DNA of 64,000 bases. Origin: Eledone cirrhosa. Lineage: Eukaryota. The translations under genes and the position numbers were made by a program. The stretch's first letter is position 1. The number at the start of each line of letters is the position of its first letter. The stretch is from contig OZ024741.1 of assembly GCA_964016885.1 (NCBI GenBank), positions 71,920,001 through 71,984,000 on the forward strand, in the 5' to 3' direction. Shown piece by piece: positions 4,601-7,600 of this stretch. The notes below the pieces were generated by a model that ran no database searches, was not told where the DNA came from, and saw only the letters and a program-made list of their open reading frames with translations.

Positions 4601-7600
4601 ACCTTCCTAGATGATTCCATATAATTGGTGAGACTGACACCAGGCCTGCATCGGAATCGGACATCGGTATATTGAGAAGTTGTGGTGAGACTGCCACGCA
4701 GGAAGCAGGACATTCCTTGGTAGTTCTCCATGGTTTCATTGAAAGCTTCTACATAGATGTTCTGTGTTCGACCACTCTTGTGACTGTTGCTTTGTAGCAC
4801 ATACTTTGTCATTACTTCCAAACTTTTCATGATTCTACAGAAAAAAAGAAACAAAAATAGTCGAAAACATGTGAAGACTATATAATGTAGAGCAGATGAG
4901 AGGAGAGACTTCAAAAATATGTGTAAAATGTGAATTATTATGTCTGTATATACAGATGTGAAGGTGCATGGCTTAGTGGCTAGAACATTGGCTTACAATA
5001 GTGAGGTTGAGAGTTTGATTCTTGGACCGGGCTTACTTTGTGTTCTTCAGTAAGACACTTTATTTCACGTTGCTCCAGTTCACTAAGCTGTAGAAATGAG
5101 TTGTTGCGACGTCATTGGTGCCAAGCTGTATCGGCCATTGCCTTTCTCTAGGACAACATCGGTAACATGGAGAGGGAAGACTGGTATGCATGGGCAACTG
5201 CTGGTCTTCCACAAACAATCTTGCCCAGACATGTGCCTGGGAGGGGAACTTTCTAGGTGCAAATCCCATGGTCCGACCAAAAGGGGTCTTTATATTCGGA
5301 CCTAGAACACCTGCTGAGCCCCATCTGCTCCCCATAACTGAACACAGTTCACCAATAAAGATATAAACATTTGAATTAACAAACGTTTTAAAATATTTTC
5401 TGCTAAATAATGCCAGGATGGTGGATTGGCAAAATAATTAGAAGTTTGCACTATTTGTTCTGGTTCTTTATATTCAAATCAAAGTTTTAAATTTCAATCT
5501 TCAGGAAAGGGTGAGGATTAAATAATCTACCAGTAAAATGCTGAGGTCCAATACAATTGACTGTATTTCTTCTCTAATATGTCTGGCTCCTGTGTCTATG
5601 TCAGATACCATTCTTATGTGACAGTTTAGATGTAGAAAAAATGCAAGTTTAACCATTTTTATACCAACCCAGCTAAAACTGGCTCTGGTTCAGTGGATTC
5701 CTATTTAACATAGTTTCATATAAGAATCATATATTAAGTTGCAATTCCAGTAATGGTCATGAAAGGGCTAATAAACAACGTTAGGTTTACTGGTAAAAAC
5801 AAAAATTTCTTTAGGACTGATAGAGTGTGACCAGGAGGTAGTCAGGTGACTAAGAGCAGAGAAGTGTAAAAAGTCAGAAAAATGATGGGATACCTTGAAC
5901 AGCTGTTGTTGTTCTGTTGAGCCCTGATCAGCAACTTATCATTGAGGTTCAAAATGTCACTGGCTGTCTCCAGCATTATAGTAAATATCTGGCCACCCTA
6001 AAATTAAAGGAGAAAAGAAAACATGAGATGAAACTAGCTGGATTGGTCAAGCAACAACATCATCATTATCAGTTTTATGAAAACATGACGGCATGGGCTG
6101 AATGAGTGATTTTGAGTCAATGTTTTGTAGCAGGAAGCCCTTCTTGACATCAAACCTTTTACTTGCTTCTTACACCTGTATTATATAAATTAATTTGTTA
6201 ATTAATTGATTGATTAATAACTTTGATCAAGACACTTCTTAAAATAATAATGATGATGGAGTCTACTTTAAAGACTCATTTCTTATATTTACTGATCTCT
6301 GGTCAATAGTTGTAACAAAGCTTGCTGAGATACATATATACTCTCACAAACACACACATAACTGACTTGTATGAGAAATACACATAAACACACACATATA
6401 ACTGACCTGCAAGAGCAACACACATACAGAGACATTATATCTCTTTTACTCTTTTACCTGTTTCAGCCATCCGGCTGAGGCCATGCTGGGGCACCTATAT
6501 ATAAGGATAAAGATATCATAACTCCTTGTGGAGTCATAGAGGCACCATCACACGGTATGTCTCGGGCACTTTTTAAACCTGGTGGAGCCCAACCCTCTCC
6601 AGGTTTGAATACAACTAATTTTTTCTATAGAGGAAGAATCAACCCCAGTACTGGACTGGTACTTCTTTTTATCGACCTTGAAAGGCAAAGTTGAACTCAG
6701 CAGGATTTGAACTCAGAGCATGCAATGAGGTGGGACGAATACCATAAAGCATTCTATCTGATGTCTTAACGACTCAGCCAATTCGCCGCCACATATATAC
6801 ACACATAATAATTCACATTTTACACATATTTTTGAAGTCCCTCCTCTCATCTGCTCTACATCATATATTCTTCACATGTTTTCTACTGTTTTTGTTTCTT
6901 TTTTTCTGTAGAATCATGAAAAGTTTGGAAGTAATGACAAAGTATGTGCTACAAAGCAACAGTCACAAGATTGGTCGAACACAGAACATCTATATAGAAG
7001 CTTTCAATGAAACCATGGAGAACTACCAAGGAATTTCCTGCTGCATGCATGGCAGTCTCATGTAAATCAATTAAATGCTTTAATTAAAATCTTTGTTAAT
7101 CTTTGTTTTTTATATATTCTATATATACACACACACACACATCTCACTAGCAAGAACACATTTCCCTTACATAAGTTCCAGTTTTGACATGGTTTCTACA
7201 GCTGAATGACCTTCCTATAACCCTATAAATATTTCATCTTCATCAGCATATAATGTTTATTTTTCCATGCTTGCATGGGCTAGATGGGTTGTTGTGTGCT
7301 GATGCTAGACTTGTTAGGTGACCATGTCCTGCTTGTATGCTCTGTTTTGTTTTGGTTTAGTTTCTATGACTGGATGTCATTCCTAATACCAACCACTTTA
7401 CAGTGCGTACTGGGTGCATGTTTTTCTACAGTTGGATGCCCTTCCTAATGCCAGCCACATTACAGCATGTACTGGGAGTTTTTTATGATGTCTCCAGCAC
7501 TACCCAGTTACATAGTGGGCTAGCTGAGGTAGCAGTGATGGGGGTTGGGGATTTTTAAATGACAGGGGTGCATGCTAAGTGGTATATGCTGTTGGTGGAG

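Follow-up and report, generated by a model that had tools for sequence, protein, structure and literature searches.

An ADGRA3-like gene with an inverted exon copy

The window (the whole stretch of 64,000 nt analysed here) lies in an intact ADGRA3-like adhesion GPCR gene encoded on the minus strand. Exon numbers are local to the window (Table 1), and the gene extends further 5′. The domains (LRR, Ig, GAIN/GPS, and secretin-type 7TM; 7tm_2) follow the ADGRA3/GPR125 architecture, and the best matches, P0001 from Octopus vulgaris and P0002 from Argonauta hians, are both named ADGRA3-like by NCBI; the ADGRA3 assignment is by architecture and best-match names. Eleven exons of the window have counterparts in the Argonauta ortholog, in which the boundaries of exons 7 to 10 are the same. 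Against P0001, exon 9 is 84% identical and the large last exon 95%. Left of the window are the exons for the GPS, 7TM, and tail; they align to P0001, and the matched exons have no internal stops. We take the animal to be an octopod whose protein is distinct from either reference. A deep protein search matched only P0001 and an unrelated FG-GAP protein. P0001 is without two LRR exons (against 16010-13009), a part after the Ig domain (10233-10029), and the end of exon 7 (7757-7704). All of these parts are present in the window and in Argonauta, and the gaps in P0001 are probably annotation errors.

The GPS motif reads HLT (L003:7258-7150, minus strand), which we take to be the canonical self-cleavage triplet. 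In human ADGRA3, by contrast, the motif is a divergent SLS, and cleavage at that site is reported not to occur (PMC13631675). With its HLT GPS, the octopus receptor may autocleave.

Exons 8 and 9 correspond to residues 50-162 of a 300-residue Argonauta stretch that aligns to the solved GAIN domain of ADGRG3 (query residues 62-297, E 1.3e-8), and the alignment overlaps both exons. This supports the GAIN location given in the preliminary description; the placement is by sequence alignment to solved GAINs. A single-sequence structure prediction for the Argonauta stretch was too poor to use (pLDDT 38). The frame arithmetic of that description also proved correct. Skipping exons 8 and 9 together removes 336 nt, keeps the frame, and introduces no stop, while loss of exon 8 alone runs into a stop at codon 82 and loss of exon 9 alone at codon 117 (codons numbered from exon 7).

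Table 1. Positions of the inverted pair, the adjoining repeats, and the neighbouring exons in the window.
Feature	Position	Strand	Description
Exon 7	7851-7704 (148 nt)	-	AG/GT ends; ends in phase 0
Inverted copy, intron 7	6794..7060	+	Sense on the plus strand; in the minus-strand pre-mRNA it is antisense and supplies the predicted 5′ arm
TATATACA stretch, left end of copy	6794..6801	+	Matches template end 4945-4952
Old dispersed repeat adjoining left end of copy	6625..6790	-	Best identity 79% to 11 sampled relatives
Exon 8	5997-5894 (104 nt)	-	AG/GT ends; inside the 1841-nt loop
Old dispersed repeat adjoining intron end of template	4960..5103	+	Best identity 83% to sampled relatives
Template arm	4686..4952	-	Final 118 nt of intron 8 and initial 149 nt of exon 9; supplies the predicted 3′ arm
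Exon 9	4834-4603 (232 nt)	-	AG/GT ends; within the GAIN region
Exon 10	3861-3666 (196 nt)	-	AG/GT ends; starts in phase 0

Alignment confirmed that 6794-7060 is the reverse complement of 4686-4952, as had been described: the arms are 267 nt long with 12 mismatches and no gaps (95.5% identity), and homology between them stops sharply at both ends. The arms are 1841 nt apart, and they form the longest of the inverted pairs listed for the window. The exon boundaries bear out the reported content of the copy (118 nt of intron and 149 nt of exon 9), and the template arm includes the polypyrimidine tract and the acceptor AG at 4836-4835. The remainder of exon 9 (4603-4685) stays outside the duplex and is an internal control. 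Because a search of the 3.0-Gb genome returned just these two places, the pair is neither a chance match nor a transposon pair. It has these features of a local templated inverted insertion: two copies only, nearby, in opposite orientation, and not transposon sequence.

Both repeats that adjoin the pair are presumably SINE-like, and 7-mer seeds detected no further homology past them. Substitutions specific to the copy create an SphI site at 7043-7048 that is missing from the template and can serve as a genotyping marker. Elsewhere in the window, partly interrelated intronic tandem arrays lie at 38963-41402 (period of about 70 nt), 50757-53684 (23-nt period), and 42300-43615 (G-rich), and open frames at 2-496 and 16998-17873 look to us like non-LTR retrotransposon fragments.

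Sequencing support, age, and origin of the copy

Four of the eight sequencing runs were compared: X1 (DNA), X4, X5 (relative B), and X6 (RAD). A DNA contig of run X1 spans the right junction of the copy (7005-7202) with no other letters, although X1 may be the assembly's own sample and hence not independent. Its contig depth is 9 at the copy versus 10.6 in unique intron, a weak measure by which both chromosomes of the animal appear to carry the copy. Independent support for the copy as real DNA comes from relative B: its letters at 4862 and 4884 are those of the copy, and ancestral letters cannot be the product of an assembly error. The RAD run, from another individual, has a depth of 0 in the copy bin and is uninformative on fixation.

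Relative B is represented over the template by a single unbroken 639-nt contig covering 4546-5103, up to the end of the repeat at 4960-5103. No copy at 85% identity or more was seen in B (copy bin depth 0.09, where a coverage hole alone proves nothing). Copy and original agree with each other and differ from B at 14 sites, while the copy agrees with B at two (p = 0.004); for intron sites alone the counts are 8 and 2 (p = 0.11). The letters of B were read among the differences listed, and a site that was not listed was taken as no difference. This site pattern, together with the fact that no copy was seen in B, makes it likely that the duplication is young and postdates the split of species A, which carries the copy, from B.

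Six of the differences between the arms lie in the exon part. All six arose in the copy, and none is synonymous (chance p = 0.29); at 6/6 of these sites the residue in O. vulgaris is that of the original, confirming the direction of change. Between A and B, in contrast, the paired exon part shows synonymous differences only (6/6 sites). The exon-pairing part of the copy has changed at 6 of 149 positions versus 2-4 of 118 for the original intron, so its rate is not lower (Fisher p = 0.47-1.0). The preliminary description had proposed a check of related species for the copy and for compensatory changes. The copy was not seen in B, the one relative compared, and no compensatory change opposite the exon was visible in the copy; the conservation typical of a functional ADAR editing-complementary sequence (ECS) was likewise not found in this comparison. 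Nothing in these 12 sites, which give the neutrality tests little power, points to selection for pairing.

The junctions suggest how the copy arose. It begins with TATATACA beside the head of the old repeat, identical to the TATATACA at the template end, and at its other end it runs CA and then T. The TATATACA stretch is a candidate microhomology for a template switch. A broken end in the short TA/CA run beside the SINE head could have paired with the similar TATATACA run on the opposite strand, 1.8 kb away; after 267 nt had been copied, the end would have been rejoined through a 2-3 nt overlap (CA/T). The simplest account of these junctions would be a template switch whose priming took place within a self-complementary TA run. 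Like the templated insertions of microhomology-mediated template switching (MMBIR), the insert is short, repeats neighbouring sequence in inverted orientation, and shares brief stretches at its junctions. The proposed mechanism is read from the junctions.

Inverted pairs of at least 100 nt and at least 90% identity within 5 kb occur in 36 of 140 sampled 10-kb stretches. Four loci had an arm that seemed rare in the sample, and genome searches identified one of them (L088) as a true two-copy inversion; L012, L017, and L085 were dropped as high-copy repeats. The L088 pair (2743-3115 / 4004-4376; G000:C4:80002743-80004376) is 373 nt long and 98% identical, has two copies, and has its outer ends in a TA run. 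It suggests a recurring TA-primed route, from two cases that were noticed after the fact. Extrapolated from one event in 1.4 Mb, the figure is about 2,100 per genome (95% range 54-11,900), and local two-copy inverted duplications are likely to number thousands per genome. This count leaves out extra pairs from a relaxed survey (in L017, L035, L045, and L088), none of which has a TA end. With the number of coding exons per genome assumed to be of the order of 200,000, a few percent of such duplications would touch an exon, and tens of cases would be expected in the absence of selection. In L035, the edge of the sampled stretch cuts an inverted pair of 99% identity (9063-9341 / 9722-10000).

Predicted duplex and transcript evidence

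Folding predictions support the earlier proposal that the arms can pair over a loop of about 1.8 kb that encloses exon 8. The RNAduplex energy of the two arms is -438.7 kcal/mol, and in the MFE fold of 4560-7120 (2,561 nt) 259 of the 267 copy bases pair with their cognates. The exon 9 acceptor AG lies inside the predicted duplex. The 12 differences between the arms become four G-U wobbles and eight mismatches, and the sole A:C mismatch is the intronic one previously noted at 4858 (intron position -24). The paired exon part contains 54 adenosines; editing would alter the encoded residue at 40 of them. The predicted structure is a capacity and not an activity. Wobble-preserving drift was rejected as a sign of selection, as four of 12 differences are too few.

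Transcript evidence comes from run X4, which was treated as RNA only because its contig is spliced. Its 5,244-nt contig (depth 24.5) joins 4602-4834 directly to 3664-3860, that is, exon 9 to exon 10, with no other letters in either exon piece. Depth at the copy is 0. Bin depths fit one contig holding exons 7 to 10 in seven of the eight bins tested; the eighth bin (4752-4895) is above expectation (26.5 vs 14.1). No second contig was found in X4 at the listed exon sites, and no skipped or back-spliced product was seen among the joints listed for this run. The main transcript in the X4 sample includes exons 8 and 9 and has no majority editing. Contigs drop minor variants, and X4 speaks to the majority transcript only. 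The editing or exon-skipping switch put forward in the preliminary description gained no support from these joined and unchanged exons or from relative B, in which the copy was not seen.

The literature was also searched. A full-text search, outside of which most subscription papers fall, returned no paper on the locus or on a duplicated-exon ECS in cephalopods. Five gene names had no match in one supplement file each of PMC9068888 and PMC4384741; these files are probably without the main editing tables, and the result is no evidence on editing.

Interpretation of the inverted pair

The pair is probably a young local inverted duplication, likely produced by a microhomology-primed template switch during repair or replication, that is drifting neutrally with at most minor by-product effects on RNA. 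A neutral recent duplication had been offered earlier as a fallback, and it is the best fit to the data: no copy was seen in B, drift in the copy is not below the neutral level, and splicing in X4 is normal. The arms could pair once intron 8 has been transcribed. Intron 7 would probably often be spliced out first, or the duplex unwound, so that exons 8 and 9 are normally included. Should ADAR act on the paired part at all, we would expect scattered, unselected edits that stay short of a majority. Some observations speak against mere neutral debris. The predicted duplex is very stable, covers an acceptor, and has survived, and it is not interrupted by any indel. Coleoid neural tissue also recodes heavily (PMC9068888).

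That last point leads to the strongest alternative, in which the copy is a newborn ECS. A single recent duplication would have created a long-range editing guide, and nuclear ADAR would edit many of the 54 adenosines, giving a mainly neural recoding cluster in the GAIN block at substantial frequency, in this lineage and not in B. Exon-intron duplexes of this kind are described for BLCAP, where the ECS is in the upstream intron, and for the GluA2 Q/R site and 5-HT2C, where it is in the downstream intron (PMC10404624). As in BLCAP, an upstream intronic antisense stretch can pair here with a coding exon before splicing, and the predicted duplex is stable over 149 nt of exon with its many recoding adenosines. 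Unlike in BLCAP, GluA2, and 5-HT2C, the partner is a 267-nt duplicate of 95.5% identity that lies two introns away and leaves a whole exon enclosed by the loop; it was not seen in a close relative, it provides no A:C mismatch within the exon, and editing was not observed. Long duplexes that pair almost perfectly tend towards scattered rather than site-selective editing, which also counts against an ECS. Unchanged letters in exon 9, the lack of a second contig in X4 at the listed exon sites, and the unconstrained copy weigh further against it. In coleoids, 91% of robust recoding is neural-type, with little in other tissues (PMC9068888), and a non-neural X4 could miss it. On balance we consider an editing guide unlikely. 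If true, it would be a cephalopod recoding cluster caught at birth, driven from an intron and invisible to transcriptome-only studies.

Less probable still is an effect on splicing, in which the duplex would hide the exon 9 acceptor and loop out exon 8, yielding an isoform that lacks 112 GAIN residues; to this we add a route, absent from the preliminary description, through skipping of exon 8 and a circular RNA. In C. elegans (PMC8330042) and in primates (PMC13019027), exons flanked by inverted matches are more prone to skipping and back-splicing. The arms described here similarly lie in the introns flanking exon 8, at 796 nt (copy) and 941 nt (template), within the few kilobases over which reverse complementary matches (RCMs) and inverted Alu pairs can loop out an exon. 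Unlike in RCMs and Alu pairs, one arm crosses the next acceptor into exon 9; and unlike Alu pairs, the arms are duplicates of unique sequence rather than transposon copies, and no skipped or circular product was seen. The acceptor AG within the duplex and the in-frame skip of exons 8 and 9 are what such a switch would use. However, the 336-nt in-frame sum is likely older than the copy rather than its product, because the exon boundaries match those of Argonauta. The skipped isoform would likely misfold, because the residues it loses align within the solved GAIN of ADGRG3. The X4 contig is unbroken across the joint of exons 9 and 10, and bin depth indicates that exon 8 is included. We regard a splicing switch as quite improbable. 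The pair is not classed as a member of either the ECSs or the RCMs, because no product was seen and conservation was not found, although by prediction the intronic copy can form a stable duplex with an exon.

That the copy is an assembly artefact of mis-joined or duplicated reads is hardly credible: X1 may be the assembly sample and X6 has no coverage of the copy, but the arms differ at 12 sites, B has the copy's letter at two of them, and the X1 contig crosses the right junction unchanged.

As a neutrally drifting duplication, the pair is of little importance in itself, and there are probably many other local inverted duplications like it. The locus shows that a long predicted duplex over an exon is compatible with normal splicing, and it offers a test case in which paired sequence (4686-4834) can be compared with unpaired sequence (4603-4685), and species A, with the copy, with species B, without it. 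Such contrasts can ask whether cephalopod ADARs recode through distant intronic partners before splicing, and how editing clusters arise. A study of coleoid editing clusters notes that introns were largely left aside there and in similar work (PMC8891338).

Other young inverted repeat pairs (95-98%) are present in introns of the same gene, at 46196-46370 / 46811-46985 (440 nt apart), 9338-9531 / 36972-37165, and 36984-37171 / 46183-46370. Because of these pairs, several other long duplexes are possible in the pre-mRNA.
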